NCBI RefSeq assembly: GCF_008000775.2
Contig: NZ_CP042905.2
Coordinates: forward strand, 2,310,001-2,342,000
Source: Promethearchaeum syntrophicum
GTDB lineage: Archaea > Asgardarchaeota > Lokiarchaeia > Sigyniarchaeales > Promethearchaeaceae
DNA length: 32,000 nt
Direction of reading: 5' to 3'
A program made the translations under genes and the position numbers. The notes under the pieces were generated by a model. The model was not told the DNA's origin, searched no databases, and saw nothing but the letters and a program-made list of their open reading frames with translations. Below are positions 376 to 19,606 of this stretch, piece after piece. Every line of letters starts with the position of its first letter. The stretch's first letter is position 1.

Positions 376-625
376 TTGATTTATTACCACTTTTTGTATT
401 GTTTGATATATTTATGTTGTTTATCTTGCAATTTAATTCTTCTATTTTTATGATTGATTAAGATACTTAGGATCTTGATTTTCATAATCGAAATATTCAA
501 TAACACAGTGAATTCATTGAAAACTTTTCTCTCTCCGTATGATTTTTTAAAATTAAACAAAATTAATGCTTTATCCTAAAAATGAAATAAATATATAAAT
601 AAGACAATACAATTTTATTCATAAA

Positions 626-3600: not shown

Positions 3601-3877
3601 TTTTTACTTCATCGATTTACGAAGACGCAGTAATCAAATATTCGATTTAGAATGTGATTTCAATACCTTAGAATATTTTTTAATTTCACACCTTGGTCTA
3701 AATCATCTACCTGATTGGATGTTCTCTTCCCAAAATATAATTAAAGTTAAAATACATCACGGCGATATAGGGAAGTCCTATGATCAAATCTTTCAATCTG
3801 TTGAAAAAGGAGTTTTCCACTTCTTTGTTCAAAACGGATGCAGAATTCCGGAAAATATTGGTAGTTTTGTAAAATAG
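626..3877 (+). CDS. NLR-like STAND NTPase: N-terminal hydrophobic segment + coiled-coil region, NACHT NTPase, C-terminal leucine-rich repeats
   Basis: 1083-aa ORF. Hydrophobic stretch WALMIGPVFIPAATPISACVSFISQFL (aa 37-63). Walker A GHMGLGKT (nt 1424-1447). Walker B LLLIFDGFDE (nt 1619-1648), which has the NACHT-type hhhhDGxDE form. LIIFLTSR motif. LRRs such as LTNLIELKRLSLANNQIVNIPKSIEKLRFLEFLELDNNYITQIPQEIQKLKNL from about aa 635, with further degenerate LRRs toward the C-terminus. TATA-like aaatatataaat lies ~30 nt upstream of the ATG. Confidence 0.85.
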   Translation: MPKKKEKNSNQLPNEKSEKWKNFKKNAAKGLKTTLKWALMIGPVFIPAATPISACVSFISQFLSKQLHMEIDEKQISDRLSKDTNSISSKLITSEIINHLKTKNKSITNKKSIEIEDTLIKLEKSLEYIQKNQERDPDSFKEVYQGFLEELKEENIENYSKLQKVISKQNDFFDSFNQNIVGFLDDIKQPLWNSKFQNQKKILEYTDDDLQFFCQKQLEIEEISSRYDEPYDKERFVPVQKLEDEFERFSKNLQNKVSKERIFLMLGHMGLGKTWNASYIGYKYNDQIPTFIFNLGTAFETKFENCFGDLFEKNPLENYFKRKTSNQYGEKLLLIFDGFDEILPNEREDIFNSIINLVKTNPNKLIIFLTSRLVDWIHTPVVYSKARSYRNYIFQNQQFDSFEDISIPTGASFILSDINDSTFLKEITSKYEIDYDLIQNPKIKILLHKPFIVKLISSHNPDLAYQDFNPQDDKWFQIFAGPKKYNTILHRMGILEAVENTFQDLICMIGDPYTPILEQELREFIKPNQIHWDIIFSSGIIKKRQKNLQNEFYFPDEYQDFIERYITELKGIFHENVICKADVYALESIEKELSGFKIQNYTFVPYKDLNVGYKLNNKGRVIEMYLKKLQNKLSYFPEGLTNLIELKRLSLANNQIVNIPKSIEKLRFLEFLELDNNYITQIPQEIQKLKNLNRISIKNNNIQFFKGWWNNLKNLKYMNISNNTSHIEGHTIKSVPKNCSIIDDGFEENSEIVLKDAAIIDYLNNLKNENFEKRSANFKDLHLISLTLRNAEYDEFKGLFWSSENLASLEIQGKSVKFMHNSSIKKLIFRQDKTRELMIDESISQLESLESLQIYGYNTLELPESLKKCEKLKQIIIQCPELQVLPQILLEIKNFHNIFVSTSNIPLNDIDLGEYQDSEKSLIIIQLNKQYNFADLLIPEHIHNFCLISRINMPKKVIVKGKLRKFFYLSINKITMDFYKNLSFGHDKNIGNFYFIDLRRRSNQIFDLECDFNTLEYFLISHLGLNHLPDWMFSSQNIIKVKIHHGDIGKSYDQIFQSVEKGVFHFFVQNGCRIPENIGSFVK

Positions 3878-4199
3878 TACCCAGACGGAAAAACCAGAGC
3901 TGTAAGGCAACGCCAAACCAGAAGGCGATAAGTAAAGAAGAACTTAAAAAACAAATAACTAAAAATGTTGAAGAAAAAGTCAAAGTCGAATACAGAGAGA
4001 AATTTAAAAAATTCTAAATTTACTGCTTTGGATGCTCTTTTCTAGTTTTGATAATCAAAACACTCACAACTATCCCTGCAACTATCCAAAATTTCCATCC
4101 GAAAGAAATTGATTCGCTTTCTTCAGGATTCTCAAGTTCATCAGTGTCATAAATATTGTAAGTTTCATTGCTGTAGGTATTATTGATGTATTGTTATAT

Positions 4200-4412
4200 C
4201 TAAAAAGGAAGGGAAAGAAAATCACCAAAAAGTCTACTCATACCATCGGTACTTTCGGTTCCACTTTTTGATGTCAGGATTTCCATCCCGATAGTTTGCC
4301 CCAGCGGGGCGTTTCTCTGCCGGATTGTATCCTGATTAAAATTTTCTAATTTCTGATAGGCACCGAATTCAGATAAATCTTCTCCTGTACCAAGGTTTCT
4401 AATACGTAACAT
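4200..4412 (-). CDS. hypothetical small protein (doubtful, possibly a gene remnant)
   Basis: 70-aa ORF in a locally GC-richer stretch with no recognisable motif. The same frame continues past TAG and TAA stops into a hydrophobic C-terminal tail (see findings). Confidence 0.25.
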   Translation of the reverse strand: MLRIRNLGTGEDLSEFGAYQKLENFNQDTIRQRNAPLGQTIGMEILTSKSGTESTDGMSRLFGDFLSLPF

Positions 4413-4465
4413 TATTTTAGATAACCTTTAAGTACCAGTTGATATACAAGTTTATTTTTACCTAA

Positions 4466-4663
4466 TTACTGAAATTTCCAAATATCGATGTTTTTTTCTG
4501 AAAATCGAACTAATACTCCACAATTGGGACATACATCATAATACATTTTAGGTGAACCATAAGTGGTACGTTCAGATATATGATCCCATTCCTTGAATGT
4601 TGATACTTCATTACACACTTTACACTTCATTTTCTGATTTTTATCAATACCCATAACTAACAT
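4466..4663 (-). CDS. small zinc-ribbon protein
   Basis: 65-aa ORF with CxxC...CxxC (KCKVCNEV...VCPNCGV). Divergent from the TIR-LRR gene, 101 nt away. Confidence 0.5.
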   Translation of the reverse strand: MLVMGIDKNQKMKCKVCNEVSTFKEWDHISERTTYGSPKMYYDVCPNCGVLVRFSEKNIDIWKFQ

Positions 4664-4764
4664 TAGATTATAAAAAAATAAAAATTAGAACAATAATAAT
4701 TATTGATAGATTTCAAAAGACAAAAGAGGGAGATTTTATTTCGAGCGGTACCAAACATTCAACT

Positions 4765-5916
4765 ATGAATATTTTTATTAGTTATGCTAGCTCAGATTTA
4801 ACTTCTTTTCGCATCTCGGATATCGCCATTCGTATGGAAAATACTGTGGAAATTGAACGTGTGTTTTACTGGGACCGTGACTCTACCGCTCAGAAATCTA
4901 TCGTCAAATACATGGAAGAATCAATAACGGTTAGCGATGTGATCTTGATTGTCTGCACTGAAGCTTCCAATGAATCTGGACCAGTGCAACAAGAGACGGA
5001 TATGGCAGTATACCTAAATAAACGAATAGTACCAATATTTCAAGATATCAATGATGTTCGCCTAAGTTTACGTCCCAAACGAGGAGTAAAATATTATACT
5101 GATGACTTCGATTCCTTTTTCAAAGAACTTTTCATGGTGGTAACAGAATTATTGCCCGAAATCCCTCAAGAAGAAGAAATTGCCGAATTTCATGGAATTC
5201 CTTTAGCAATAGATGAATATCGGGCTATGAAAAGTTTGGAAGAACAACTAGGGATTATAATTCCACCTATTGAACCCTTTTATAAAAAAAAAAATGTTAG
5301 ATTTTTCACAGATATCGATTATTATCTGAATGAAGATAACTTGAAAAGAGGATTTGGATTCGCTGCAGAAAGAAATCACTTAATCCAACTAAAATTTAAC
5401 CGAGTTCCAGATGAAGATGAGGAAAATCCTCCTATAATAAAATTTTTTCCCGATGCATTAAGTCAGTTATTATATCTCAGAGCTTTGGATCTTAGCTATC
5501 AAAGTATCTCTATAATTCCTAATTTTATCGGAAAATTAACTCAATTGGAGTATTTTAATATAAGAAACAATAAAATCCAAAGATTTCCTAAGATTTTGAC
5601 TCAATTGAAAAACCTCAAATTTTTCTTATTCTCTAATGTTTCTATTGTTGAATATTTAAAAGATGAAATTTTTATAACAAGAAGTAATTATGAAATCTTA
5701 AATTCATTACTAGAAAATCTGTGTAAGTTAGACCTATATATCAATAATATTCCGTATTATTGGTCAAAACTTAAGGCAAAAAATCATTATGCTCATTGTG
5801 TTCATTGTGGTCATAAATTAAATTTCGAATTAAATGATCTTCCCACAAATAATGATAATTTGATGATATGTCCGAAATGTCAAAATGGAGAATTCTATAA
5901 CTTCAGTATAAAGTAA
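4765..5916 (+). CDS. TIR domain - LRR - C-terminal zinc-ribbon protein
   Basis: 383-aa ORF. N-terminus MNIFISYASSD...VFYWDRD...DVILIVCTEASNESGPVQQE has a TIR-like layout, with a candidate catalytic Glu77 at nt 4993-4995. LRRs LRALDLSYQSISIIPNFIGKLTQLEYFNIRNNKIQRFPKILTQLKNLKFF. C-terminal CVHCGH...ICPKCQ ribbon. Confidence 0.8.
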   Translation: MNIFISYASSDLTSFRISDIAIRMENTVEIERVFYWDRDSTAQKSIVKYMEESITVSDVILIVCTEASNESGPVQQETDMAVYLNKRIVPIFQDINDVRLSLRPKRGVKYYTDDFDSFFKELFMVVTELLPEIPQEEEIAEFHGIPLAIDEYRAMKSLEEQLGIIIPPIEPFYKKKNVRFFTDIDYYLNEDNLKRGFGFAAERNHLIQLKFNRVPDEDEENPPIIKFFPDALSQLLYLRALDLSYQSISIIPNFIGKLTQLEYFNIRNNKIQRFPKILTQLKNLKFFLFSNVSIVEYLKDEIFITRSNYEILNSLLENLCKLDLYINNIPYYWSKLKAKNHYAHCVHCGHKLNFELNDLPTNNDNLMICPKCQNGEFYNFSIK

Positions 5917-6334
5917 ACGATTAAATTTGGCTCTTTTTTTATATTTGACTCAATTGGAGTATTTATATTTAAGAAAAAACAAAATCAAGAGGTTTCCAGA
6001 AATACTATCTCAATTCAGAAATCTAAAAATATTCCTATTCTATGATAATTTGCTATCTGATAATCGCAGTCCCGGTTCCATGACACAAAGTAATTATAAT
6101 ACCTTAAAATTTTTACTCAATAACAAATGCAAGATAGATGATGGGTTTAAAACTATGGTTGCTACCGACTACAGAAAAGTCCATGCATTATATAAAACTA
6201 TCTATTGTATTTTCTGTGGACATGGTTTTAATATATACCAAGAAAATCTTCCAATTAATGCATCAAAGAAATGGATATTATGTCCGAATTGTAACAGCGA
6301 AAAACATTATGAATTCAAAAGTATAGTTGAAGAT
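5536..6334 (+). repeat. diverged tandem duplication of the LRR/Zn-ribbon coding segment (copy 1 ~5536-5913, copy 2 ~5945-6334)
   Basis: At the DNA level, 'actcaattggagtattt' opens both copies, followed by colinear codon-level similarity. The protein alignment is described above. Confidence 0.65.
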
Positions 6335-6337
6335 TGA
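5927..6337 (+). CDS. LRR + zinc-ribbon fragment: truncated tandem paralog of the 3' third of the TIR-LRR gene (possibly a pseudogene)
   Basis: 136-aa ORF with a TTG start, 10 nt after the upstream stop. LTQLEYLYLRKNKIKRFPEILSQFRNLKIFLF...CIFCGHGF...LCPNCN aligns colinearly with aa ~258-383 of the upstream protein. It has no TIR domain. Confidence 0.5.
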   Translation: MALFLYLTQLEYLYLRKNKIKRFPEILSQFRNLKIFLFYDNLLSDNRSPGSMTQSNYNTLKFLLNNKCKIDDGFKTMVATDYRKVHALYKTIYCIFCGHGFNIYQENLPINASKKWILCPNCNSEKHYEFKSIVED

Positions 6338-6827: not shown

Positions 6828-7000
6828 ATGTGTAAGAAGGTAAGATTATATATAAAATTTACCAATGAATTACCATTAAATAATTTAAACGAAATAACTT
6901 TAAATATTTAAATTTATTAAAATAACTTGATTAAGAATACTTAAGAAAAAATAAAGGTAATTTTTGAGGTAAAAAATACCAAAAATAAAGTGAAAATGAT

Positions 7001-7700: not shown

Positions 7701-9146
7701 ATGGATAGCAATATAGACAATATACTAAGAAATTTTGTAATTAAATGGAGAGAATCTAAGGAAAAATCAAAAGTTTTTGATGAAGAAATCGGATTTATGA
7801 ATTTTCCCATTCCTACACAGTTCTTTGTATTTGAATTTAAACATAAAGCTATTCCATTTTATATTATTTTAAAAACTCATTTCTCCAATAAAAAAGATTT
7901 AATTATTCAAAAGAAAGGTAATTTCTCATTGAATAATAACCAGAAGTTGAAAAATTTTCAAGAGGAACTTAACTCTATTTTTCAAATATACTTTTCTAAA
8001 AATGAAAAGGACGAGATCCTTGATTTAATTGCCAGATTTTTGAATAACCAATTTGTGGGTAAGGAGATCGAAATATTGAAAGTTGGGTTTAGATCATCAA
8101 CAACACTAATTAACAATATAAGCATTGGGATTTATTTCGGAGATTGGAATAAATTAAATATTGAAGAAGATGTGAAGAAAAATATTAAAATTCAGAAGGA
8201 AATGGAGAATACATTCGTAAATTTCATGAAATCAAGATATGATAGAATTGATTGTATAGGTGCTTATTTATACCCTCCAATATGGATTGGAATATTACCT
8301 GTACTCTCATTTACAGAAAAAATGCAAGAGATTAAATTAAATGAGATTATTGAAAAGAAGATTGTAGAAGTTGACCATAGGAAAGTAATTTATACTTCTG
8401 ATGGTTATTTTGCAGTGGAAATAAAAAACTCAGTAGATGGATTCAATATCGAAGAAAAAGTGGAAAAATCACCAGAAGAGATATCCTCGATATTAGAAAT
8501 GATGAATTTATTAAATTCCATCTTATTACTGAAAGATTTTCCTATTAATGCTATTCAACGAAGTAATATTTCTTCTTTATGTTATTATATTCCTGAAACA
8601 AATTTTCTATATTTTAGTGTCAAATCAAATTCCGATGCTTCAGAATTATTGAATGATCGGCAGAAGCATATCACAAATGTGCATATAGAGAAAAAAATTA
8701 ATATACCCTTAGAAATATTCAAAGAAAGCATAAGAGAAGTAAAGATGTTAGCAGAAAATAACGAATTAAAAGATTTTAAAGAATTGATTATCACTGGATT
8801 AAATTCTTCAACGAATTATTCACATTTTGAATATCCTCAATCATTTATTCTTGGATGGACAATAATTGAGCAGTATATTAACAATTTGTATAATAAAAAA
8901 CTTAGTTTACAAAATATTCCAAAAGGAAAAAACCCTTCAGTCTATAATAAAATCAAAACATTGAAATCAGCATTTCAAATTAATAATAAGGATTATATAT
9001 TGCTAAATAAACTTCGGATTAAAAGAAATGATTATGTTCATGATTTAACGATGATTGATAAAAAAAATGCTCAAACTTGTTTAGATTTTAGTTTAAAATT
9101 ATTAAAAATATCGTATAATGAAAAAATATCTCATGTTTCTCAATAA
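7701..9146 (+). CDS. protein with a C-terminal HEPN-like domain (putative RNase); N-terminal ~380 aa uncharacterised
   Basis: 481-aa ORF. RNDYVH (aa 442-447, nt 9024-9041) fits the HEPN Rx4-6H motif and lies in a helical context (KLRIKRNDYVHDLTMIDKKNAQTCLDFSLKLLK). Confidence 0.65.
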   Translation: MDSNIDNILRNFVIKWRESKEKSKVFDEEIGFMNFPIPTQFFVFEFKHKAIPFYIILKTHFSNKKDLIIQKKGNFSLNNNQKLKNFQEELNSIFQIYFSKNEKDEILDLIARFLNNQFVGKEIEILKVGFRSSTTLINNISIGIYFGDWNKLNIEEDVKKNIKIQKEMENTFVNFMKSRYDRIDCIGAYLYPPIWIGILPVLSFTEKMQEIKLNEIIEKKIVEVDHRKVIYTSDGYFAVEIKNSVDGFNIEEKVEKSPEEISSILEMMNLLNSILLLKDFPINAIQRSNISSLCYYIPETNFLYFSVKSNSDASELLNDRQKHITNVHIEKKINIPLEIFKESIREVKMLAENNELKDFKELIITGLNSSTNYSHFEYPQSFILGWTIIEQYINNLYNKKLSLQNIPKGKNPSVYNKIKTLKSAFQINNKDYILLNKLRIKRNDYVHDLTMIDKKNAQTCLDFSLKLLKISYNEKISHVSQ

Positions 9147-9189
9147 GTAATTGAAAAAAGGAAAAAAGAAAAGAAAAAAGTATTTATTT

Positions 9190-9297
9190 GGAATTTTTTG
9201 ATGCAGCTCTTTGAGCTCGGGCTTTAAATCCTTGATCACCTTTAGATCCTTTTCGATCTTGAGCAGATTGAATTCTTTTTGATGCTTTTTTTGACAT
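9190..9297 (-). CDS. possible small basic protein (35 aa)
   Basis: Below the ORF-track size cutoff. My translation: MSKKASKRIQSAQDRKGSKGDQGFKARAQRAASKNSK. The segment is locally GC-richer. GGAGGTG lies ~25 nt upstream on the minus strand. Confidence 0.3.
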
Positions 9298-9439
9298 AGA
9301 TTGTTTTTTAACCAATTTCTTTCACCTCCAAAATTTTCGTCAAATAAATAGAGTTAATTTTTTATATATTAGTCTAGAAAAAAATGCGTATGCATATTTT
9401 TTTGTAGTTAAATTGCAACATTAATATTAGTTATATAAG

Positions 9440-12400
9440 ATGAAGCCTACAGAGGATGCAGATAAGTTCCTTCAAAAAATACAGCAAGAATATGGTTGTG
9501 ATAGGATTTCCCAAATCGAACATCTTATCAATTTTGATAGGGAAAAAGAAATATTACAAAGACTCTTGCTATTGCAGTGGTGGTTATTAGGTAAAGATGT
9601 TATTGAGTATGATGTTAGTACTATTGCTGATTTAGTTTCCGATTTAAATAATCCCGATTGTTTAGTTCATAAATTTGAATCATCCATCAAATCCTATTCA
9701 TATACGGATAAATTTAACATAATTTCCAATGGAAAAATAAAAGGACATACGAGTCTAAGAGATTTTCCTCGAAAATGGGCAGAAAATGAAGTTATTTTAA
9801 TAAAGAAAGGAAAAAATTATCATTTAACTGAATTAGGTAAGATTTGTGGTAATTACATTTTTTACAAATTATTAATTGCTGAGATATCTAAAAAAGACCT
9901 GATTAATTTTATAAGATTAGAAGGTAATTTACAATCTCAAATTTATGATCATCACGATAATGCTGATTTAATCCGAATGCAAATAATTCAAGATACTAAA
10001 ACGGATTCTAACAAATATGACTATACTCCTAAATTTTCAGAATTAATTACATTCCTTCAAAATTTTCCAGAACTCTATCCAAATGAATTATTAATGATAA
10101 AAAAGAGTTTAATAAATAAAATTTTTCACCGATATGCTGCCAATTTAAACATAAATCATACTCACTTGCTTCAGAATGGAGAAAAAATTACAAATAGCAG
10201 TATTAAAAGAGAAAAAATCAATTGGATTTATAATCTTGAATTAAGATCAAAAGAGAATCAAACATTTGATTTACCAATTACTAATAGAGTAAAAATTAAA
10301 GCGAATCCATTTAAAGTTCGATTCCAGGTACTAAAATCACCAGGAGGATATGGGAAAACAATATTTCTCTATCAATTAGCCTTAAATAATCTATTGGAAA
10401 TACATAATACCAACAGTGCAATTACTGAAATCTCCAAAAAGAAACAATCATGGATTCCAATAATTATAGTATGCAGAAATTTGCATTTATTAAAATCAAA
10501 GGATAAATATACCTTATTTTATAATGCGGAAAAAATTGTTGACTTCAGAACTTTTTTTAAAATCAATACCCCTCCTAAGTTTGAAGAACTTATTGTAACA
10601 CTTCTTTATTCATTTTTAAAAAAATCTTCCTTTACAACTAAAGCAACTTGCCAATTTTTCTTAAAGAGTATTATTAATCATAATATATTGCTAATCTTTG
10701 ATGGATGGGATGAAATTGAAGATAATCTGATGAAGAAATGTATAATGAGTTTAATTGAAGAACTATTTATGAAAATGACGAATATTGTGTGTTTAGTAGC
10801 AACAAGATATCTTGATCAAATTTTAGAACAAAAATTAGAATTAAAGCGAAATAAAAGCATAAAAAAGAAATATGATCCAGTTCATTTAAGTTTATCATCC
10901 CTAACAGATTCCCAAATATCAAACTATCTATCAGATTTTTTCCAAACTGATCAGCAAACAATTAATAAATTTATTCAAGAAACAAACTCTCAATATACTC
11001 CTTTAGAACTATATTTCTTAACACTTTTTCCTAAAATTGATTTACCTAAGTATAAATTTAAGCTTTATGAGAGAAGAATTTTATTTGGAGTCTTATCTGA
11101 ATTCTATCCAATAGCTAAATTACAGAAAATTGATTCAATTACAGAAATATTTTATTTATTGGATAAAAATGTTCAACAATCAGATTCTGATAATTTTTTA
11201 CTTAACAACAACCAAGATAAAACCAGAAATAAAGACTCTATATTAAAAAATGATATATCTACTAATGATCACGGAATTAAAATTCGAGATTTGATTTATG
11301 GTCGTCTTTTCTCACTTATAACATCAAGTTCTAGGAATTATTCCCTTTATTCAATAATGCCATATATATGCTACTCGTCATTGTTTCCACTAAAATTTCC
11401 CCCTCTTGAATATGCTCAATGTATCAGAGTAAATCCAGTACTAAAACGCTTTATTGCTCCAAAAGATGAGCCAACTAATAATTCTTTAATTGCAATTTTA
11501 CTTGATTGGCATTTTATGGATTATTTCTTATCGTATAGGATTTTTCAAGCATTTTGTAATGATGAAACAATTCAACCAATTCCCTATAAATCGGTTGAAA
11601 ATTTTCTTAAAGAACGATTTGAAAACCTAGATGAAAGTAAGGATTTAATCTTTCAGAAATTTCACCAATATGGTATTCAAAATTTTGATGATTTTTTAAG
11701 TATGATTTATTTAGAAGCCAAAATTGAATTCCCTCCTCAAAAATTTCTTAGAGATGATTTTGATCCTGGTGATGGTGGATTTTCTGATCCTGGTATGAAA
11801 ATTACAATGAGTTTGAATATGCCCATTTATGGAAAAGAATTGATTGAAGCATTTAGATTTGAATTTAATAAAGCAAGAAAGAAGAAAGAATATCATTTAG
11901 TTCCTCCAATTCTTCAATTATTCAACATTTTTTATAAAGAACGCCCGAGTATTCAACGTCAAATAAAAATGCCAACTGATAGTGACCCAGAATTTTATGA
12001 TCCAGAAGAGAATCATTCTCCTTTAGATTACTTTGATATTGTTTCTTCTCTTTTCTTTAAAGATCAATATTCTCCTGAAAACATAGAAATTATCAGATAT
12101 GAAGAAAAAGAAAATGAGTATTATTTACAATCTACTGGATTTTATAATGAATCAAGTCTTTCGTTAGAAAAACACGAAGGAAAATTCTGGAAAAGGAGTG
12201 ACATTAGGGAAATTCTGGAAAAGATGCTCTTAATCTCTAATGAGCACCTCATACCGTGGTTAGAGCAGGTTTATTTAAAACTTCCCGATGAATTAAAACC
12301 AAAATTAGATTCTAATCAACTTAAAAACATTCTTTACTCCTCAAAAAATCAAGTTATACAACGATCATCTTTTAATTTACTTCTTCGAATAAATATTGAG

Positions 12401-15358
12401 CAGATATTAGAAAACTACCAAGACTTTATTCAATTAAATAACAAAGAAATCATAGATGATTTTCTTGAATACTATTTACCTCTAATTTCAGATAAAAAAG
12501 TCTCTAATAGAGATTTTAGTGGATTTTTACGAATTTTAGATAGTTCAGTAGTTGATAATGCAGGGAAAACTATTCTTTACAATCACTTTATCCAAGTTGG
12601 TTTAGATAACAAACAACGAGAAGCTATGTTCAGTAGATTCAAGAGAAATTATTATAAAAAACCAGAGAACTGGGATGAGCTAATTATACTACAAATTCTT
12701 TTACTAATTAATCTTGAAGAAGAAGAATTAAATGATGATTTGTATAATTCTCCTAGCTATTATCTAATTAAGGATAGATTAAACAAATTTATTTTACATG
12801 CAATTCAGAAAAAATATGGCTTTTATTTTGACTTTTTAACATCTTTAGAAATTTCCACTGATTTAATCATCTCAAAAATATCTGCTTATTCTTTCAATTT
12901 AGTTGAAAAGCTTCAAATATTATTGTATAAACCAGAATTGTCATTTGAATATCAAATGGAAAATTTGAAAAGAGAAATCGCAGTGCATATCAGACCTAGA
13001 AGATATAAAGAATGTGATACAAGATCAGGATTGGATCTTATAAAACAAATCCAACAGAAAATTCAAGATTCAAAATCAAATTTTTATTCAAAGGAAAGAT
13101 TTTTAGAAGAATTAGAAGAATTAAATGAAAAATTGCTTTTTTTAGATGATATCGATAGATTTTATGTTTCAGATTTAATGGAATGTTATCTTGAATGGAA
13201 ATTATCCTTATATCCTCCCAATCATAAGGATTATTTATCTATTGCTGTTCTAATTTTTGATTTTTTTAAAAAACTAAAGATCCAATCAGAACAAGCAGAA
13301 TATAAATCTCTTTGGAATAAATCAAGGTCGAAAGAATATACTTATAACCGAATTTTTAAAATAATCAATGAACATTTCTATTTAATTGCAATGGATACCA
13401 GAATACAATGGATTCGTTTCTATATTGCGCAAAATTTTGAATTTAACACATATCAAATTTTACTTTATAATATTGATAAAAACTTAGTAGAAAATCTACA
13501 TTCAATTATTTGGGAAAAAGTTAAACAAAATCGAGATTTTGAAAATTTAAACTTTAATTATTTAAGAAAAAGAAGTGTATATCTGCATTCTTCCTATCCT
13601 TTTTCCAATTCGAATCAGGAAGAAGATCAAAAAACTAATGAAATTCTCCAAACATTACCTTTTTCTTTGGAGGGATTACTTCCATTTAAAGAATTTAATA
13701 AAATTATCTTGGAAATACTTCATTATGAAGAAAATATGGAATTTTTTGATTCAAATCCATTTGATCCAGATGACTCATACAAGATACATCCATTTCTTAC
13801 AATTATCAATAATTATTTCTCTCTATTAGCCCAATATAGAAGAGTTGAGGAATATATTGAAATATTTGAATTATATTGGAAGAAATATGCCTTCCATTCA
13901 AGCATGAAAAATCAGAGACATATTACATATTACATAATATATGCATTTTCTGAAGAAATAATGCACAAAATATATCCCTGTTTAAATCCATCTCCATATA
14001 AAATTGCATTTTTACTTTGTTATAAGCAGAAAAGTAAATATCGGACTGAATTACCATATCTCGAAAAAGATTCGTTTTATAAGAAGCAAGATATCAATAT
14101 TTACAAAGAAATTAGTCAATTTTCAAAGGAAATTATATATGATTCTATTCAAGAATTTCATAAGACAGGAAAAAATGCTTTTCTGTATAATGAATTGTTC
14201 CTATTTACAGATCTTAAACACCATTCGATGCAAGACATATGGAATTTCATTGATCAACAATTAACTGGACATAAATTTGGCTATTATTCAGAATCACCAC
14301 ATTATTATTTAATAGATTATGTGACTGTTGGTCAATTGAAACCGGAATTGTTAAAGAGATGGAATATATTTCAACATCTAGCTCGAATTCAGAAAAAGAA
14401 TCGTTTATCGTTGTCGGAGTCAATTTTTAGAGAAAATTTATCTGAATATTCAAAACTAATTGAATTCATTGAAGATTTTGCTCATTATCAATTTTCAGAG
14501 CCATACATTCCTGTATTAGATAGTGAGAAAATTATGAATTTTAATGAGATTCAACAGCAAATAAAGCAAAATTTGGATCATAAAAAACAAGAAATTGGTT
14601 ATATTAAGTTAGATCCAGAAAGTACCTTCTTTCATTATTTTAAAGAATCAGAATACAATATATTAAAACAATTGGAATCAGAGATAACATCAAGAGATGG
14701 TAAAAAATTATATGATCCTTATGCGGATGATAACGATGATAATGAAACTACTGAACATGATCAAATTTATGGAGTTAACAGACAAAAAGATGAAAAATAC
14801 CAAATTTGGAGAGCTTTAACTGAAAAAGAACGAAATAAAGTTAAAATGGCAAGAGAGAAGGTATTTGAAAATGAAAAAGAATTTTGCAATATGTTCTATA
14901 GAGAATTAAACGAGAAACAACGAAAAATTTTCTTTTCTCACCATAGCACTGTTCTTGAGTGGTCTCCAACACCAATAATGTTTTTTCCTACGTTAAAATG
15001 GATTCTAAAACAAATGGTAGATAATCCAATTTATCAAAAGTTTGATATTGAATATATGATGGAAGCTCAAGCACATTTTAAGAATTCAGCAAATGAACTC
15101 AAAATCTTAGATGAAATACTAAACTATGGATTTAAGTATAACAAGTTAAAAGAATGGTATAAGCGATTAATTTCTTCAAAAGAGTTGGAACAAGAGATAT
15201 TCTTTATTTTTGAGAAGTATATAACCAAATATATTTATTCCTTCAATGAATTGGATTTGTTTCCCAAAAATTTAAGAAAACTATGTATTACTCAGTTACT
15301 AAGTCGTTTTTCACTTCAAATTGCCCGAAAGCTATATGAAAATAATAAGTATAAGTAA
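9440..15358 (+). CDS. giant NACHT-type STAND NTPase with a ~290-aa unknown N-terminal region and a ~1400-aa helical C-terminal region
   Basis: 1972-aa ORF. Walker A SPGGYGKT (nt 10337-10360). Walker B ILLIFDGWDE (nt 10685-10714), NACHT-type DGxDE. The VCLVATR motif follows. The remainder is helical with no recognisable repeat family. Acidic patch DPYADDNDDNETTEHD. Confidence 0.85.
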   Translation: MKPTEDADKFLQKIQQEYGCDRISQIEHLINFDREKEILQRLLLLQWWLLGKDVIEYDVSTIADLVSDLNNPDCLVHKFESSIKSYSYTDKFNIISNGKIKGHTSLRDFPRKWAENEVILIKKGKNYHLTELGKICGNYIFYKLLIAEISKKDLINFIRLEGNLQSQIYDHHDNADLIRMQIIQDTKTDSNKYDYTPKFSELITFLQNFPELYPNELLMIKKSLINKIFHRYAANLNINHTHLLQNGEKITNSSIKREKINWIYNLELRSKENQTFDLPITNRVKIKANPFKVRFQVLKSPGGYGKTIFLYQLALNNLLEIHNTNSAITEISKKKQSWIPIIIVCRNLHLLKSKDKYTLFYNAEKIVDFRTFFKINTPPKFEELIVTLLYSFLKKSSFTTKATCQFFLKSIINHNILLIFDGWDEIEDNLMKKCIMSLIEELFMKMTNIVCLVATRYLDQILEQKLELKRNKSIKKKYDPVHLSLSSLTDSQISNYLSDFFQTDQQTINKFIQETNSQYTPLELYFLTLFPKIDLPKYKFKLYERRILFGVLSEFYPIAKLQKIDSITEIFYLLDKNVQQSDSDNFLLNNNQDKTRNKDSILKNDISTNDHGIKIRDLIYGRLFSLITSSSRNYSLYSIMPYICYSSLFPLKFPPLEYAQCIRVNPVLKRFIAPKDEPTNNSLIAILLDWHFMDYFLSYRIFQAFCNDETIQPIPYKSVENFLKERFENLDESKDLIFQKFHQYGIQNFDDFLSMIYLEAKIEFPPQKFLRDDFDPGDGGFSDPGMKITMSLNMPIYGKELIEAFRFEFNKARKKKEYHLVPPILQLFNIFYKERPSIQRQIKMPTDSDPEFYDPEENHSPLDYFDIVSSLFFKDQYSPENIEIIRYEEKENEYYLQSTGFYNESSLSLEKHEGKFWKRSDIREILEKMLLISNEHLIPWLEQVYLKLPDELKPKLDSNQLKNILYSSKNQVIQRSSFNLLLRINIEQILENYQDFIQLNNKEIIDDFLEYYLPLISDKKVSNRDFSGFLRILDSSVVDNAGKTILYNHFIQVGLDNKQREAMFSRFKRNYYKKPENWDELIILQILLLINLEEEELNDDLYNSPSYYLIKDRLNKFILHAIQKKYGFYFDFLTSLEISTDLIISKISAYSFNLVEKLQILLYKPELSFEYQMENLKREIAVHIRPRRYKECDTRSGLDLIKQIQQKIQDSKSNFYSKERFLEELEELNEKLLFLDDIDRFYVSDLMECYLEWKLSLYPPNHKDYLSIAVLIFDFFKKLKIQSEQAEYKSLWNKSRSKEYTYNRIFKIINEHFYLIAMDTRIQWIRFYIAQNFEFNTYQILLYNIDKNLVENLHSIIWEKVKQNRDFENLNFNYLRKRSVYLHSSYPFSNSNQEEDQKTNEILQTLPFSLEGLLPFKEFNKIILEILHYEENMEFFDSNPFDPDDSYKIHPFLTIINNYFSLLAQYRRVEEYIEIFELYWKKYAFHSSMKNQRHITYYIIYAFSEEIMHKIYPCLNPSPYKIAFLLCYKQKSKYRTELPYLEKDSFYKKQDINIYKEISQFSKEIIYDSIQEFHKTGKNAFLYNELFLFTDLKHHSMQDIWNFIDQQLTGHKFGYYSESPHYYLIDYVTVGQLKPELLKRWNIFQHLARIQKKNRLSLSESIFRENLSEYSKLIEFIEDFAHYQFSEPYIPVLDSEKIMNFNEIQQQIKQNLDHKKQEIGYIKLDPESTFFHYFKESEYNILKQLESEITSRDGKKLYDPYADDNDDNETTEHDQIYGVNRQKDEKYQIWRALTEKERNKVKMAREKVFENEKEFCNMFYRELNEKQRKIFFSHHSTVLEWSPTPIMFFPTLKWILKQMVDNPIYQKFDIEYMMEAQAHFKNSANELKILDEILNYGFKYNKLKEWYKRLISSKELEQEIFFIFEKYITKYIYSFNELDLFPKNLRKLCITQLLSRFSLQIARKLYENNKYK

Positions 15359-15385
15359 TTAAATATAAAAAATGCAGAAATTCCA

Positions 15386-15763
15386 TTAATATATTAAATC
15401 TTGAATATTTATTCTTTTTTTCTTCTTTAATTTTCTCAATTTCTCCATAATAATATCAACATTTGCCTCCTCACTTTTATTATACTGTGAGATCATGTGG
15501 TTTATGTATTCAATTTTAAAAATTGATACTCCTGGATTATTCTTATTTTGCTTTTTTGTATTTATTTTCTTTAAAAAAAATCCTTCATCTTCCATATCTT
15601 TGATAAATCTTGATGATTCAATGTAATCCTTAAGAATATGGCCATGATAACCGTGAATAATACTTATTTTACTAATTTTCTTTTTCCAGCATGTTCTGAG
15701 GTAAATTAAAACCTTTTCAATTGCTTCTTTGAAGCGGTTGTTATGCAAATCACATTTGAGCAT
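15386..15763 (-). CDS. Smr (small MutS-related) domain protein, putative nicking endonuclease
   Basis: 125-aa ORF. CDLHNNRFKEAIEKVLIYL...ISIIHGYHGHILKDYI matches the Smr LDLHG...IIHGkG layout. Confidence 0.7.
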   Translation of the reverse strand: MLKCDLHNNRFKEAIEKVLIYLRTCWKKKISKISIIHGYHGHILKDYIESSRFIKDMEDEGFFLKKINTKKQNKNNPGVSIFKIEYINHMISQYNKSEEANVDIIMEKLRKLKKKKRINIQDLIY

Positions 15764-15879
15764 AGATAAATAGTGGAAAAATGACTATTTATTCAACAAA
15801 AAAAATGCATTAGCTTATTTCTTTATAAGAAAAAAATTGAATTATTTTTTTTTAGGATTCGTAATAATAGATTTAGATA

Positions 15880-15920
15880 CTTTGTCATATTTGTCAGACA
15901 AAGTAGACAAAGTTACAAAG
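15880..15920. promoter_or_regulatory. operator-like cluster of TTTGTC/GACAAA half-sites in the divergent Smr/RHH promoter region
   Basis: cTTTGTCat at 15880-15888. Perfect palindrome TTTGTCaGACAAA at 15890-15902. GACAAAG at 15906-15912 and tACAAAG at 15914-15920. The cluster sits immediately upstream of the TATA-like ttttttaatatatttt (15921-15936) and of GAGGGTG (15951-15957), which precede the ATG at 15961. Confidence 0.5.
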
Positions 15921-15960
15921 TTTTTTAATATATTTTCCAATGATTAAACTGAGGGTGTAA

Positions 15961-17058
15961 ATGAAAGATAAATCACGAATTACTGTAAGAGTTCCTTCTT
16001 GGGTTAAGGAAGAAATGGATAAGAAAAATGAAATAAACTGGTCTCAGATTATCAGGAATATTCTAATCGAATATATAAAAATTGAAGATTTTCCTTTACA
16101 TTTCCGAAGGATCGTTAAAAAACATAAATTATCAGAGAATTGGGATTTATTAAAAGCCTTTTACTTATTTTCAGCAAATGATGACAAAAAATCGTTGAGA
16201 TCCAACTTATACACAGTATTCGATGAAAGGGCTGATGAAATCGAAAATGATCTAAAAAAAACATTAATTGATCTCGGTATTCAATATAAGGTCGAAATTC
16301 CCAAAGAACAGAACATTAAAGAGAATATTTTAAATATTTTATTCGAAGAAGGAGTAATTTCCGATTTAGAGGGAGAAATAGATAGATTGTTTGAGCATGT
16401 TGAAATCAAATCTAAGATAAATGAAGCTATTTGGTATTTAGGGCTCTACCTAAAAGATGAATCCGACTTTGAACCTAATAGTGTCTCATTTGCAGGCGAT
16501 GGTTTAAACATCTACTTTTCGCATTTATTCGACGATCCTGAGAAAATTATCAATGAACTTATAAAAATTGGAGTTTTAAGCCAATCCAATTACAGAAGTA
16601 ATGCATACTCATACACAATATACAGATTGTTAGATCAATCAATAAAATTAGTTAAAGAAATACAACTTAATCCAGAGAAATATTCACTCACCCATCTTGA
16701 TTTATCACAGAATATTGAAGATCTTCTTCATCATGAGAGAAATCGATTTTTAATAAAATCATTAGATCAAGGACTTGATGTCCATAATAGGTATAATAAT
16801 ACAATTCAAGATTTTGAAGAGAAATTCGGTGAGGGGTCATTTAATGATACATTAGATGAACTGGTCAAGAAAGGTATCATTATATGTAATTACTCTCCCA
16901 GTCGTAAACGATCCGGAAAGAGAGGTGCAATGCGATCAAGTTTATATTATAAGTTATCCAAAACGGGTGAAGAGAAACTTAAAGAATATATTTTAAACCG
17001 ACATCTACAGAATAAAGAAGGAAAAGTGCAAAGTATTATTGAATTGTATGAACTTTAA
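15961..17058 (+). CDS. ribbon-helix-helix (CopG-like) DNA-binding protein with C-terminal winged-helix-like segments
   Basis: 365-aa ORF. N-terminus RITVRVPSWVKEEMDKKNEINWSQIIRNILIEYI has an RHH pattern. LDELVKKGIIICNY...LYYKLSKTGEEKL is wHTH-like. Confidence 0.65.
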   Translation: MKDKSRITVRVPSWVKEEMDKKNEINWSQIIRNILIEYIKIEDFPLHFRRIVKKHKLSENWDLLKAFYLFSANDDKKSLRSNLYTVFDERADEIENDLKKTLIDLGIQYKVEIPKEQNIKENILNILFEEGVISDLEGEIDRLFEHVEIKSKINEAIWYLGLYLKDESDFEPNSVSFAGDGLNIYFSHLFDDPEKIINELIKIGVLSQSNYRSNAYSYTIYRLLDQSIKLVKEIQLNPEKYSLTHLDLSQNIEDLLHHERNRFLIKSLDQGLDVHNRYNNTIQDFEEKFGEGSFNDTLDELVKKGIIICNYSPSRKRSGKRGAMRSSLYYKLSKTGEEKLKEYILNRHLQNKEGKVQSIIELYEL

Positions 17059-17403: not shown

Positions 17404-18666
17404 ATGGAAAAAATAAACAGAAAAGATATCGAATCTACCTTTAATAATTTAATATCACCAAAATTGAAAGATTTAAATCTCGTTTTCGATTTTGAAAAGA
17501 AATTGACGGAAATAAAAAAAAAAGCAGATATTATAATTTACAAGAATCCACCCATCATCTTAGAAATAAAAATTTCTACCTCGTTCTCTATATTACAGTT
17601 TTTAAAATTTGATCTTATTCAATGGAAAAAATATAACAATGGATATTGCAAAATAATGTACATATTCCTTAATAATATTGATCTCAAGAAATCATACCTA
17701 AGTGAACAAAGATTTAAGAAATATATAACTGAACATCCCGAAATATCACATTTCATTGATGAATACATATTTTTAGAATATGACGAAAATGCAAATCTAT
17801 TAGAAAATATTGATTTGCAGGAAATAACTGATAAAATAAAAAAATTATTGGAATCAGATTTAGTAATCACCCCAATTATCGATAAAATGAATTCTTATAA
17901 TATTGGTTTTGATTCACAAAAAAATCTCCCTTCAATTGAATATTTTGATGAGAACTCAATCGGATTATTTGAAATTTTATTAACATTCTTATATAGTAAG
18001 GCATCTCAAGAGAATCAAGAAAATATCAAGAGTAAATTTATTCGTTTAGAAAATGAAAATCCAAGCAATCAGCTCTTTTTGAATTCTTTTGAATACTTTT
18101 TTGAGAATGGTTTTAATAAAATGGATGAGACTCTCTTCATTTCGCTTTTTGATAAATTTCCAAGTAATTATTTTCAGAAATTTAGTAAAAATACGCAAGA
18201 TCCTGTATGTAATTTCTTTGCGAATTTAAAATCCACTTTAGAACCACTTTTTCCAAAAACACAAATCTGTACTAAAAAGTATAATTTAGTCGAAAAAAAA
18301 ATTGAATTAATAAAACATATATTGTCTCATACTAATTTTAATATTTTTTCTGATCAAATCAAACTAAAGGAACAAGATTCGATACTTTTATTAGATGATG
18401 GCAATTCAATAGTTATTTTCTGTATTTATCAAAGATTTGCAAATTTTGACTTCTATAGTAATTACTTATTTGCACGTTATGCAATTAAGTCGAAAAAATT
18501 CTATCCAATTATTTTTTATTGTGAATCCAGTGTCCTACATACAAAAAGGTATTATCGATTAAAAAATTCGAAATTAATTTCAATCAAAATAACAGAGTTT
18601 AAAAAAACAATAGACAATGTAAATAGAATTTTCAAACAAATTGGAGGATTAAATGTCGATGGTTGA
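17404..18666 (+). CDS. hypothetical protein with a possible N-terminal PD-(D/E)xK nuclease motif
   Basis: 420-aa ORF. KKADIIIYKNPPIILEIKIS fits a D...ExK nuclease core. No NTPase motif. The 3' end overlaps the next gene by 14 nt. Confidence 0.5.
   Translation: MEKINRKDIESTFNNLISPKLKDLNLVFDFEKKLTEIKKKADIIIYKNPPIILEIKISTSFSILQFLKFDLIQWKKYNNGYCKIMYIFLNNIDLKKSYLSEQRFKKYITEHPEISHFIDEYIFLEYDENANLLENIDLQEITDKIKKLLESDLVITPIIDKMNSYNIGFDSQKNLPSIEYFDENSIGLFEILLTFLYSKASQENQENIKSKFIRLENENPSNQLFLNSFEYFFENGFNKMDETLFISLFDKFPSNYFQKFSKNTQDPVCNFFANLKSTLEPLFPKTQICTKKYNLVEKKIELIKHILSHTNFNIFSDQIKLKEQDSILLLDDGNSIVIFCIYQRFANFDFYSNYLFARYAIKSKKFYPIIFYCESSVLHTKRYYRLKNSKLISIKITEFKKTIDNVNRIFKQIGGLNVDG
18643..18647 (+). 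promoter_or_regulatory. Shine-Dalgarno-like GGAGG for the coupled downstream gene
   Basis: ggagg lies 5 nt upstream of the ATG at 18653, inside the 3' end of the upstream ORF. Confidence 0.5.
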
Positions 18667-19606
18667 AGAAAATTTAACTCAAAATCAGAATGAAGGTTCA
18701 GAAATTGATGATGTTTCTAATGAACAATTAAACGACACAATTTTATCCGAATTAGATGAGGAACAAGAAGAGTATCAAGAATTAATTTTGGAACGAGAAA
18801 AAGAACAAGAAGAATTTGAGAAATCTGTTGAAGAGTTGAAAGAGGAATTAAAACCTTTAATAAATAATTTTTGCGAAATTTGTTCAAAGACAGATAAAAT
18901 TACATTTGAACAAGAAATCAAGCAAATTTACAAAGAATACGAAGCTAATCATTATAGTGCATTAGCATTATATTGTGGAAGGGTTTATGAATATATTATT
19001 TATCAGCTAGGTTGGAAAGTTTTACAAAATGCTATGTATTCAACAATGTTTGTTAATTCCGAACCAGAAAGAAAAAGAAGACATACTATAATAAATGAAA
19101 TCGAAGGCTATTTAACTATTAAAGCCTATGGTCATTCTAAAACAGATTATTCTCAATATTTTCGAATCTACGATGATAAAATTTATAGTATCCGAAATAA
19201 AGCAGCCCATCCAAAATATGATGGAAGTTTTAGTCTGATTTCTAAACGAGAAGCAGAAGAGGCAATTAAAACTTTGATTGAGGCGATATCATTTTTAAAT
19301 GAGAAATTTTATCAAGTTAAACAAATAGAAAAAGGAATAGAATTTGAAATTCGAGCAATTTTTGATAGGATAATGCCTTTTTTTAGTGGAACAATAGAGA
19401 TACAAGAAGAAATTTTGCATTTTAAAGAAAATGAAGATATAATAAAGGCATTTATTGAATTCTTTAAATTGATCATAATTGAAAAAAGTTGGAAATATCA
19501 GGCTGAATTTAATAAATTATTAAAAGAAAATGTAGATATTAGAGAATCATTAAAGATTTTAAAAAAAATATACAAGGATTTAAATTTAAAAAGTCTAGAT
19601 AATTAA
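18653..19606 (+). CDS. HEPN-like domain protein with an acidic coiled-coil N-terminus
   Basis: 317-aa ORF. RNKAAH (aa 181-186, nt 19193-19210) fits the HEPN Rx4-6H motif, in the context IYSIRNKAAHPKYDG...EAEEAIKTLIEAISFL. The N-terminal ~70 aa are E/Q-rich. Confidence 0.65.
   Translation: MSMVEENLTQNQNEGSEIDDVSNEQLNDTILSELDEEQEEYQELILEREKEQEEFEKSVEELKEELKPLINNFCEICSKTDKITFEQEIKQIYKEYEANHYSALALYCGRVYEYIIYQLGWKVLQNAMYSTMFVNSEPERKRRHTIINEIEGYLTIKAYGHSKTDYSQYFRIYDDKIYSIRNKAAHPKYDGSFSLISKREAEEAIKTLIEAISFLNEKFYQVKQIEKGIEFEIRAIFDRIMPFFSGTIEIQEEILHFKENEDIIKAFIEFFKLIIIEKSWKYQAEFNKLLKENVDIRESLKILKKIYKDLNLKSLDN

Follow-up and report, generated by a model that had tools for sequence, protein, structure and literature searches.

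A giant NACHT-clade STAND protein from an Asgard archaeal defence island, its predicted winged-helix head and a palindromic promoter element associated with its gene family

Locus information and general features

The window analysed here is a 32-kb stretch of DNA from the archaeon Promethearchaeum syntrophicum (contig NZ_CP042905.2, positions 2,310,001 to 2,342,000), very probably the cultured strain MK-D1, and so lies within the Asgard archaea, the lineage closest to eukaryotes. It contains a gene for a giant NACHT-clade STAND NTPase, which is accompanied upstream by a divergent small basic open reading frame (ORF) and downstream by a convergent, stand-alone Smr-domain gene. A palindrome is located in the intergenic region between the giant gene and the small ORF, and related elements precede genes of the same family and its partners in other Asgard genomes. 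The features of the module, with positions in amino acids (aa) and nucleotides (nt), are shown in Table 1.

Table 1 Features of the giant NACHT gene, its partner genes and their promoters (nucleotide positions are those of the window)
Feature	Protein position (aa)	Window position (nt)	Strand	Remarks
Giant NACHT-clade STAND NTPase gene	1-1972	9440..15358	+	Intact ATG-start ORF, 1972 aa
N-terminal helical region	1-99	9440..9736	+	About six helices (aa 5-86), family-specific; AlphaFold2 (AF2) model
Predicted winged-helix unit 1	100-150	9737..9889	+	AF2 model, predicted local distance difference test score (pLDDT) 86-94
Predicted winged-helix unit 2	151-210	9890..10069	+	AF2 model
Nucleotide-binding domain	290-470	10307..10849	+	Walker A, Walker B, sensor-1-like ATR456
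Walker A SPGGYGKT	300-307	10337-10360	+	Contains K306
Walker B ILLIFDGWDE	416-425	within 10685-10714	+	DGWDE at aa 421-425
Sensor-1-like ATR456		10793-10816	+	From alignment
Helical and winged-helix part of the nucleotide-binding oligomerization domain (NOD)	471-720	10850..11599	+	AF2 model, alignment
C-terminal region, presumed sensor	721-1972	11600..15355	+	About 1250 aa
Small basic ORF MVKKQSMSKKASKRIQSAQDRKGSKGDQGFKARAQRAASKNSK		9184..9315	-	43 aa, divergent from the NACHT gene, in the 293-nt upstream gap
Palindrome ATGCGTATGCAT (ATGC-N4-GCAT)		9384..9395	.	Centre of the divergent intergenic region, T-runs on both strands
TATA-like box TTAAAT, NACHT promoter		9408..9413	+	Separated from the palindrome by 12 nt and from the ATG by 26 nt
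TATA-like box TAATATATAAAA, small-ORF promoter		9360..9371	-	12 nt after the palindrome on the minus strand
Stand-alone Smr-domain gene		15386..15763	-	125 aa with CDLHN and IHGYHG motifs; convergent with the NACHT gene, whose stop codon is 27 nt away
Degenerate element AAGCTAATGCAT, one mismatch		15805..15816	-	53 nt upstream of the Smr start codon

Classification of the giant protein

A sequence-only reading of this DNA had described a 1972-aa NACHT ORF with both Walker motifs, A and B, within aa 300-425 and a Walker A lysine at position 306, and had taken the product for a giant STAND pattern-recognition receptor. The ORF was found to be intact with its motifs located as claimed, and by motif and fold the giant protein is a NACHT-clade STAND lying among defence genes. 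The NACHT assignment is based on the DGWDE signature, on Pfam matches at the family level and on structural matches. The D[GAS]hDE form of Walker B is the defining signature that separates NACHT from other STANDs (Kibby et al., preprint), and DGWDE was kept in all family members covering the region except P0009 (DEWEQ). The G-x-GK[ST] core of Walker A was retained by every member covering it, and P301, G303, G305 and K306 were invariant in a 4-sequence alignment (window, L002, P0004, P0006). On the giant protein itself the Pfam NACHT model (PF05729) reached 20-22.6 bits, below its cutoff of 26.7, and aligned with aa 412-502 only; among 15 sequences of the family it matched 7 (best E = 1.2e-7), nSTAND5 matched 11 and NPHP3_N matched 6. 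No PADLOC family (0 matches) and no NCBIfam model matched the giant protein.

A model of aa 1-760 was built with AF2 from a 12-sequence alignment and had a pLDDT of 77.6 and a predicted TM-score of 0.74. The best Foldseek matches of this model in PDB were the NOD-like receptors (NLRs) NLRP3 (E = 1.3e-5, probability 1.0), NLRC4 and NLRP5/NLRP2, in alignments spanning about 490-620 columns with low TM-scores (0.24-0.31), as expected for multi-domain chains. Lower matches included ORC/Cdc6, Avs4 (E = 3.9e-3) and SAMD9, and no MalT or AfsR chains were among the top 50 hits. The helical and winged-helix part of the modelled NOD contains a disordered insert (aa 580-610). It also has a conserved His motif, DWHFMDYFLS (aa 689-698), which lies where the model places the winged helix of the NOD and is preceded by a beta-hairpin (aa 672-687) and helices.

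A 37-kb Logan contig assembled from run DRR199588 carries the exact giant protein and extends over the greater part of the window. This run is a gene-expression (RNA-seq) run of MK-D1 (Imachi et al.), and an assembly across the locus from such a run hints at transcription without proving it; it would stem either from pervasive transcription of the island or from carry-over of DNA.

Family members and genomic context

A word-indexed search of 5.8 billion proteins with the whole protein returned the query alone, and the family alignment used as the query in the same type of search returned three proteins only; an exhaustive HMMER search with aa 1-1200 gave 13 proteins, query included. Further loci were obtained from a metagenome scan with a 4-sequence alignment, from genome scans and from look-ups of exact proteins. 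The first scan of genome contigs gave none and the second gave one Helarchaeota locus. No relatives of the giant protein were present in a plasmid collection, and scans of IMG/VR with the NACHT protein and the small ORF gave no matches and no relatives in Asgard viruses. The sample used below consists of 12 independent loci (the window, L002, L003, L005, L008, L010, L011, L013, L014, L015, L020 and L023), all hosted by Lokiarchaeia and Helarchaeota; the proteins carry no annotation. The giant protein thus belongs to a small, Asgard-restricted family of about 12 loci, which lie in variable defence islands.

The closest relative is L002 (60-65 % identity), and identity between subfamilies is 18-29 %. 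Other relatives comprise 1955 aa in L003, 1825 aa in L005, 2088 aa in L008, 1718 aa in L011 and 2091 aa in L014, the last from a Helarchaeota metagenome-assembled genome. The window copy is intact. The L002 gene is split into parts of 604 and 1328 aa (10001-11815 and 11917-15903) and the L010 gene is also split (624-4127 and 4211-5677); L013 is a fragment, and L015 (5895-6614), L020 (9001-10494) and L023 (6601-8841) are decayed or truncated. The break in L002 follows a poly-Lys stretch encoded by an A-run, in the region corresponding to the disordered insert of the model. Split copies could have arisen through homopolymer assembly errors, pseudogenisation or slippage. A giant kinase in L015 was considered as a relative sharing the C-terminus and was rejected (BLASTP E = 0.41).

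The sequence-only reading had raised conserved non-defence contexts of homologues as the finding that would speak against it; the contexts found were instead variable, with sets of neighbours that differ from locus to locus and consist mostly of defence or mobile-element genes. The island genes of the window encode STAND-LRR, TIR-LRR, ParE, DUF4145, GmrSD, an LRR protein, IS110, a type IIG methylase-type protein and a ThsB-like TIR protein. The neighbours of the relatives include AbiEii, ADP-ribosylglycohydrolase, radical SAM, SIR2, SNF2 helicase, DUF1156 methylase, DpnII-type restriction endonuclease, deaminase-TPR, PLD, LRR proteins, a type ISP enzyme and transposases, and the defence genes around the family also include restriction-modification, GmrSD, TIR, Thoeris-TIR, STAND-LRR, AbiE and SMODS genes. 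Two copies, in L011 and L020, adjoin metabolic genes, one beside a MULE transposase and the other truncated and interrupting an FGGY kinase gene.

These two copies are among the points in favour of a non-defence regulator, a MalT-like metabolic or stress switch that lies in variable genome regions by chance; known STAND transcription factors are mostly non-immune, and the small ORF described below resembles stress and seed-maturation peptides, at a sub-threshold level only. The chance of such a regulator is slim. The L011 and L020 copies look like island insertions, given the transposase, the interrupted kinase gene and the truncation of one of them; all other loci are dense in defence genes; the partner genes encode nucleases; and the patchy, decaying and fast-diverging distribution of the family is typical of defence genes.

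Partner genes

The Smr gene had been placed by the sequence-only reading in convergent orientation 27 nt downstream of the giant gene, where it was confirmed on the minus strand, and its product matched Pfam Smr at 30.7 bits (cutoff 25.7). The Smr sequence profile gave no match in PDB. Residues of the DxH and HG motifs of Smr domains have a catalytic role; L6, H7, H37, G38, H40 and G41 were invariant across three aligned Smr copies, and D5 was kept in the window and L002 and replaced by N in L011. Smr homologues (42-55 % identity) adjoin the giant gene in five loci from two subfamilies, the window included. The gene in L002 is convergent, 15 nt downstream and 55 % identical, that in L011 is co-directional, 82 nt downstream and 44 % identical, that in L010 is frameshifted, and that in L015 is a remnant beside the C-terminal remnant of an L010-type giant gene.

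Other small genes of nuclease type were found in further loci. The giant gene of L005 is preceded, at a distance of 31 nt, by an NYN RNase gene, and in L008 (16626-17069, plus strand) and L014 (16399-16878, plus strand) a conserved downstream gene encodes a PIN-like protein of 147-159 aa (48 % mutual identity) with the motifs MDTSTLI and, further on, IITDNVxxF. The L008 and L014 proteins matched Pfam PIN at E = 0.12 and no PDB sequence, and the PIN assignment is a suggestion at the level of motifs. Altogether, a small nuclease-type gene of varying fold adjoins the giant gene in 8 of the 12 loci; no adjacent nuclease was recognisable in L003, L020 or L023, and the L013 contig ends before any downstream gene.

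The sequence-only reading had linked the giant protein to two neighbours, the Smr gene and an upstream HEPN gene, and had proposed a profile of both across homologues. The link to Smr stood, with the gene adjacent in five loci, and the link to HEPN did not. The gene in question (7701-9146), whose product matches Pfam DUF4145 just over the cutoff, was rejected as a partner, as tblastn of all loci matched the window's own sequence alone.

The 43-aa ORF upstream starts with TTG, 7 nt after a Shine-Dalgarno-like GGAGGTG, and the Met at 9297 is invariant among six aligned homologues. Neither this ORF nor the promoter palindrome described below had been noticed in the sequence-only reading. In 7 of the 12 loci a homologue (53-79 % identity) is the immediate neighbour of the giant gene, in positions that vary between upstream-divergent, downstream-codirectional and downstream-convergent (L002 9748-9894, L003 16057-16194, L005 8474-8593, L008 16312-16431, L010 6054-6191, L015 7001-7129). 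The copy in L015 belongs to the decayed NACHT-Smr remnant. The small-ORF family has the consensus M[ST]KKAARRIQSxxDKTGKNQxFKARAQRAAxK, a length of approximately 37-45 aa and strong GGAGGTG ribosome-binding sites, and comprises at least 782 clusters, mostly from Asgard archaea plus Methanosarcina, all annotated as hypothetical. Pfam assigned no family to the window ORF, and the homologue in L006 has a sub-threshold SMP match only. Its members are found repeatedly in islands of defence type, and a Methanosarcina protein of 237 aa has such a sequence as its C-terminal tail. Three small-ORF loci (L016, L017 and L019) lack a NACHT gene, and contexts without the giant gene are beside LRR, SPASM, SMODS, SLFN-NACHT-TPR or integrase genes. 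The small ORF thus often accompanies the giant gene without being a subunit dedicated to it.

A second family of small ORFs, with motifs of the NPNNxAY or DNRSDQLNPNH type and a GGAGGTG site, was observed in L011 (13371-13499, plus strand), where it adjoins the Smr gene, and in the Methanosarcina locus L016 (about 6840-6960, plus strand), immediately upstream of the basic small ORF.

Shared promoter element

The window and L002 are 84 % identical in the stretch that separates the small ORF from the giant gene, compared with about 60 % for the proteins, and the palindrome at the centre of this intergenic region is shared by the two divergent promoters. In the 32-kb window the motif ATGC-N4-GCAT has a single occurrence, where 0.16 would be expected. 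Element counts were taken over 243 kb of non-redundant DNA from the loci, in which exact ATGC-N4-GCAT (type 1) was found seven times, and all seven copies precede genes of the family or its partners, 42-83 nt from the start codon. Four of them are located upstream of the giant gene (window, L003, L013 and L014). L005 has two, one upstream of the NYN gene with which the NYN-NACHT pair begins and one upstream of the small ORF, and a second L014 copy lies 54 nt upstream of the PIN-like gene. Elements with one mismatch and the spacing kept were found in the intergenic region of L002 and in the promoters of the L008 small ORF and of the window Smr gene, in the last of which the degenerate element is followed by a T-run and, 12 nt later, by ATAAATA; a two-mismatch element with the same layout precedes the Smr gene of L002. 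The distance from the palindrome to the TATA-like box was 12-13 nt in 11 aligned promoters from seven loci.

Subfamily B (L010, L011) carries at the same place a diverged version of the element (type 2), ACAT[AT]TGT[GT]T followed by a T-run and a TATA-like box, before both its giant and its Smr genes. All six matches to this type-2 element in the 243 kb precede a NACHT or Smr gene, including those in L015 and in L020, a locus that was retrieved later in order to test the prediction. One of the two types is present upstream of giant or partner genes in 11 of the 12 loci, and the cis-element is tightly tied to the family. It is absent from the small-ORF loci that have no NACHT gene (L016, L017 and L019), and L014 carries it twice with no adjacent small ORF, so that the giant gene is the sole constant companion of the element.

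Copies of the palindrome flank the giant gene or gene pair in L003, L005, L008, L014 and the window, and transposases are frequent nearby, as would be the case if the palindromes were boundary or recombination sites of a mobile cassette carrying the giant gene. This explanation is very improbable: every copy lies 12 nt from a TATA-like box and 42-83 nt before a start codon, the window palindrome serves a symmetric divergent promoter, and neither extended terminal repeats nor target duplications were seen.

N-terminal head

The region of aa 1-290 is conserved throughout the family. The sequence-only reading had pointed to a winged helix-turn-helix (wHTH)-like segment here, and the AF2 model agrees, with a winged-helix-like unit at that segment and a second unit after it. 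The first part of the head is the family-specific helical region (pLDDT about 83-94 for aa 11-80, falling to about 67 for aa 81-100). Predicted unit 1 consists of helices at aa 103-116, a wing hairpin at aa 120-129, in the segment KGKNYHLTELG (aa 123-133) that forms the wing, and a helix at aa 131-149. Predicted unit 2 has helices at aa 151-159 and 174-179, a hairpin at aa 183-195 and a helix at aa 197-208, and is followed by a long linker helix (aa 214-243). Both helix/beta-hairpin units were modelled at pLDDT 74-94. The only family-wide invariant columns, R107, T130 and G133, are all in unit 1, and the net charge over aa 95-150 is +5; the conservation of this predicted unit and its invariant Arg suggest nucleic-acid binding. 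One family member matched HTH_45 weakly (E = 0.18). A match of the N-terminus to the PEA-15 death-effector domain was non-significant (E = 0.17) and was rejected.

The earlier suggestion that an effector might be absent was borne out as far as Pfam, NCBIfam, PADLOC and PDB profile searches reach, which found no enzyme family in aa 1-290 and no enzymatic domain elsewhere in the protein, and the family alignment shows no conserved acidic or His columns of catalytic type in this region. The effector position, which in Avs and bNACHT proteins is generally taken up by a toxic enzyme, appears, from the model, to be filled by predicted tandem winged-helix units of a non-enzymatic kind.

The head could itself be the sensor or effector, binding invader nucleic acid or, once oligomerised, coating or occluding DNA, with the C-terminus as a scaffold or regulatory part and the palindrome merely autoregulatory or bound by another factor. 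This is improbable. It would fit the predicted DNA-binding-type domains being the best-conserved region and the lack of a detected enzymatic domain in the whole protein; in characterised STANDs, however, the large C-terminal region is the sensor, and the presence of the element also at partner promoters leads one to expect a regulon and not autoregulation alone.

The main rival, which is the idea of the sequence-only reading, is a receptor of the Avs or bNACHT type, in which the C-terminus binds a viral protein, the NACHT module oligomerises, the N-terminus as a protein-protein adaptor recruits and activates the Smr, NYN or PIN-like nuclease in trans, and the element reflects ordinary co-regulation. 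It is unlikely as well, with more in its favour. The tripartite NACHT layout, the best structural matches (NLRs, Avs4), the defence-island context and the nuclease gene adjacent in 8 of 12 loci all accord with it, and non-enzymatic recruiting adaptor N-termini are a listed class of NACHT proteins. Against it, nothing indicates a physical interface with Smr, and by eye no obvious short motif was seen that the N-terminus has in common with Smr or with the small ORF. It would leave unexplained the best-conserved part of the family, the predicted winged-helix unit with its invariant Arg, and, if the output were purely at the protein level, a family-specific palindrome at the promoters of the module. 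In addition, L003, L020 and L023 have no recognisable adjacent nuclease. Amyloid-type signalling from a short N-terminal motif to a neighbour was also considered, and no similarity was seen by eye.

C-terminal region

The sequence-only reading had assigned approximately 1400 aa of non-repetitive helical sequence with an acidic patch to the C-terminus. The non-repetitive and helical character was upheld: BLASTP of the 1972-aa protein against itself showed no internal repeats, and AF2 on a 5-sequence alignment predicted, at a low confidence (pLDDT 43.5), an all-alpha region of about 55 helices with a single hairpin near aa 883-898. The length has to be reduced to approximately 1250 aa, since the NOD reaches to about aa 720. 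The acidic patch, YDPYADDNDDNETTEHD (aa 1758-1774), is present and modest, with at most nine D/E per 25-residue window. The structural search in segments that had been proposed earlier gave NLR matches for aa 1-760 and, for the C-terminal model, weak, generic matches to HEAT/TPR-like solenoids (karyopherins, Ctr9; best E = 2.7e-3) with none at E of 1e-3 or below; membership of the TPR or HEAT families is not claimed. The region had no matches in Pfam, PADLOC or NCBIfam, and no hidden enzymatic domain was detected, which is a weak test on a low-confidence model. It is possibly a new sensor.

Proposed function

We propose, with a probability of roughly 0.4, that the giant protein is a STAND sensor whose winged-helix head binds the palindromes and controls the nuclease and small-protein genes. 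The ~1250-aa all-alpha C-terminal region would recognise a trigger, probably an invader-derived molecule, upon which the NACHT module would bind ATP, oligomerise and cluster the winged-helix heads. The clustered heads would then occupy the palindromes and alter transcription of the module's own genes, including the giant gene. A position just upstream of the transcription factor B recognition element (BRE) and TATA box is typical for archaeal activators, and the operators lie at such a position, which suggests activation as the direction of regulation. Smr nuclease and the small basic protein would then be made in a burst that halts the infected cell or the invader. Nucleases of the Smr type, SmrB for example, act on ribosomes that have collided, and a highly expressed basic peptide together with Smr might, speculatively, form a translation-arrest pair.

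A transcriptional output is at least as strongly indicated as protein-level signalling, because of the predicted winged-helix head, the small ORF and the shared palindrome. STAND transcription factors (MalT, GutR, AfsR) are recognised, most of them non-immune, and a survey of bacterial NACHT proteins lists wHTH 'adaptor' N-termini that possibly trigger a transcriptional response. The class of architecture has therefore been anticipated, though uncharacterised. The further step, that an Asgard NACHT protein acts as a direct, sequence-specific transcription factor in a 'sense-and-transcribe' module of immunity that switches on a nuclease and a small protein, is put forward as a tentative idea that may well prove wrong.

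Several observations weigh against the proposed transcriptional role. The head and the palindrome are linked by co-occurrence only, and a palindromic site would suit a dimer more than a single chain with two unlike winged helices in tandem. No simple covariation of recognition-helix residues with operator type was seen, L013 has the 'ART' residues of subfamily B yet a type-1 site, and the truncated locus L023 has no clear element. The winged-helix assignment comes from an AF2 model built from 12 sequences and from a non-significant profile match, that of the family profile to the winged-helix protein Sso10a over unit 2 (E = 0.055), and the family alignments are shallow. The C-terminal sensor is only presumed (model pLDDT 43.5). 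Partner genes occur in varying orientation, and the convergent window Smr gene cannot be co-transcribed with the giant gene; the small-ORF family is far larger than the NACHT family and occurs elsewhere, and is thus not a dedicated partner. Many members are split or truncated (L002, L010, L015, L020, L023), which makes function in any single genome uncertain.

The proposed transcriptional role is testable, because the candidate operator (9384-9395), three candidate promoters in the window, the head (aa 1-290) and K306 are defined. NLR and STAND receptors usually couple a sensor to a fused enzyme or a protein cascade, and the family suggests a third output for NACHT proteins, the direct control of promoters. 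If so, the prokaryotes most closely related to eukaryotes would have an archaeal counterpart to the CIITA/NLRC5 branch of NLR biology, and the small Asgard protein family of at least 782 clusters would gain its first functional lead. Should the transcription model be wrong, the locus would still be a clean case of a NACHT receptor with a trans-encoded effector. In addition, a large unannotated family of basic proteins of approximately 40 aa and stand-alone Smr nucleases are tied to defence-type modules, and a ~1250-aa uncharacterised sensor candidate is added to the STAND repertoire.

Other features of the window

Scans of the 32-kb window with Rfam and for tRNA genes gave nothing. Downstream of the module and divergent from the Smr gene lies a gene of 365 aa (15961-17058, plus strand), the first ~40 residues of which gave an NCBIfam match to a VapB/RHH antitoxin model (E = 1.2e-5) and a weak one to Pfam RHH_12, with no assignment for the remainder of the protein. 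It was rejected as a partner, being absent from every other locus. The intergenic region between the Smr and RHH-domain genes (15764-15960) contains short direct and inverted repeats (ACTTTGTCT twice, GACAAAGT), and in L002 approximately three tandem copies of a 24-nt unit, TTGTCTTGAACATACTTTCAGTGA, are located at 16281-16430; both sets of repeats may be operators of neighbouring regulators.

Two overlapping genes on the plus strand (17404-18666 and 18653-19606), which lie between the module and GmrSD, encode proteins of 420 and 317 aa without Pfam or NCBIfam matches, and the 317-aa protein has weak PADLOC matches to BrxB and Cas8f (E about 1e-3). The pair is possibly a two-gene defence system.

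Building blocks like those of eukaryotic NLRs also occur separately in the window, on the plus strand: a 1083-aa NPHP3_N-like P-loop protein with LRRs (626-3877), a TIR-LRR protein (4765-5916), followed after 10 nt by a 136-aa LRR fragment (5927-6337) that is possibly part of a split gene, and a stand-alone LRR protein of 390 aa (22304-23476). LRR genes are also neighbours of family members in L008, L017 and L020. An IS110-family transposase gene (23734-25035, minus strand; NCBIfam 172 bits) lies in a local peak of GC content, 0.36 against approximately 0.27 for the window, consistent with recent insertion. An 82-aa HNH_3 ORF (27346-27594) has the length and Pfam family of an 82-aa HNH_3 gene in L015 (11411-11659), the two being matched on these properties and not by direct comparison.

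Comparison with known systems

In the literature searched, no description was found of the family, of the operator, or of Smr or the small ORF as STAND partners. The giant protein resembles the bNACHTs, NLRP3 and NLRC4 in its NACHT NOD, its D[GAS]hDE Walker B, its winged-helix extension with a conserved His and its tripartite layout of N-terminal output, NACHT module and long C-terminus. It differs in that the family is archaeal (Asgard), the N-terminal domain is family-specific and the C-terminus has no LRR, TPR or WD repeats. It is also accompanied by a separate nuclease gene, a small ORF and a promoter palindrome that these genes share, and the literature searched describes no such companions for bNACHTs.

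With Avs1-4 and the Avs families described later it shares a very large size, a place in defence islands and a long, helical, presumed C-terminal sensor. The N-terminal effector of Avs proteins is enzymatic, and its mutation abolishes cell death, whereas no enzymatic effector was detected in the giant protein, and its NOD is nearer to NACHT than to the Avs modules. The giant protein is not an Avs, because no enzymatic effector was found and no known Avs model matched.

The partner Smr protein is like MutS2, SmrA/SmrB and Cue2/NONU-1 in its Pfam Smr domain and its DLH and HG(x)HG-like motifs. It differs in being a stand-alone protein of 80-125 aa without MutS, CUE or other domains, and in the window and L002 it has a Lys-rich tail.

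CIITA and NLRC5 act through the enhanceosome and have no DNA binding of their own. Transcription as the output of a NACHT protein is the point of likeness to the present proposal, and CIITA is noted in the bacterial NACHT survey in this capacity. For the giant protein, direct binding by a fused head is proposed instead, and no homology is claimed outside the NACHT module.

In AfsR-type proteins the winged helix is also N-terminal. The proposed role of the giant protein would have the design of MalT, AfsR/SARP, GutR and LAL proteins, a DNA-binding HTH with a NOD ATPase and a large sensor, and the same logic, in which ligand-driven oligomerisation activates target promoters. Unlike these regulators, the giant protein has a NACHT-type NOD and winged-helix units without sequence similarity to OmpR, SARP or LuxR domains, its presumed targets, a nuclease and a very small basic protein, belong to defence islands and not to metabolic or antibiotic operons, and its system is archaeal, with TATA-type promoters. 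The giant protein does not belong to the MalT or AfsR clades, and by analogy it may work in the manner of those regulators.

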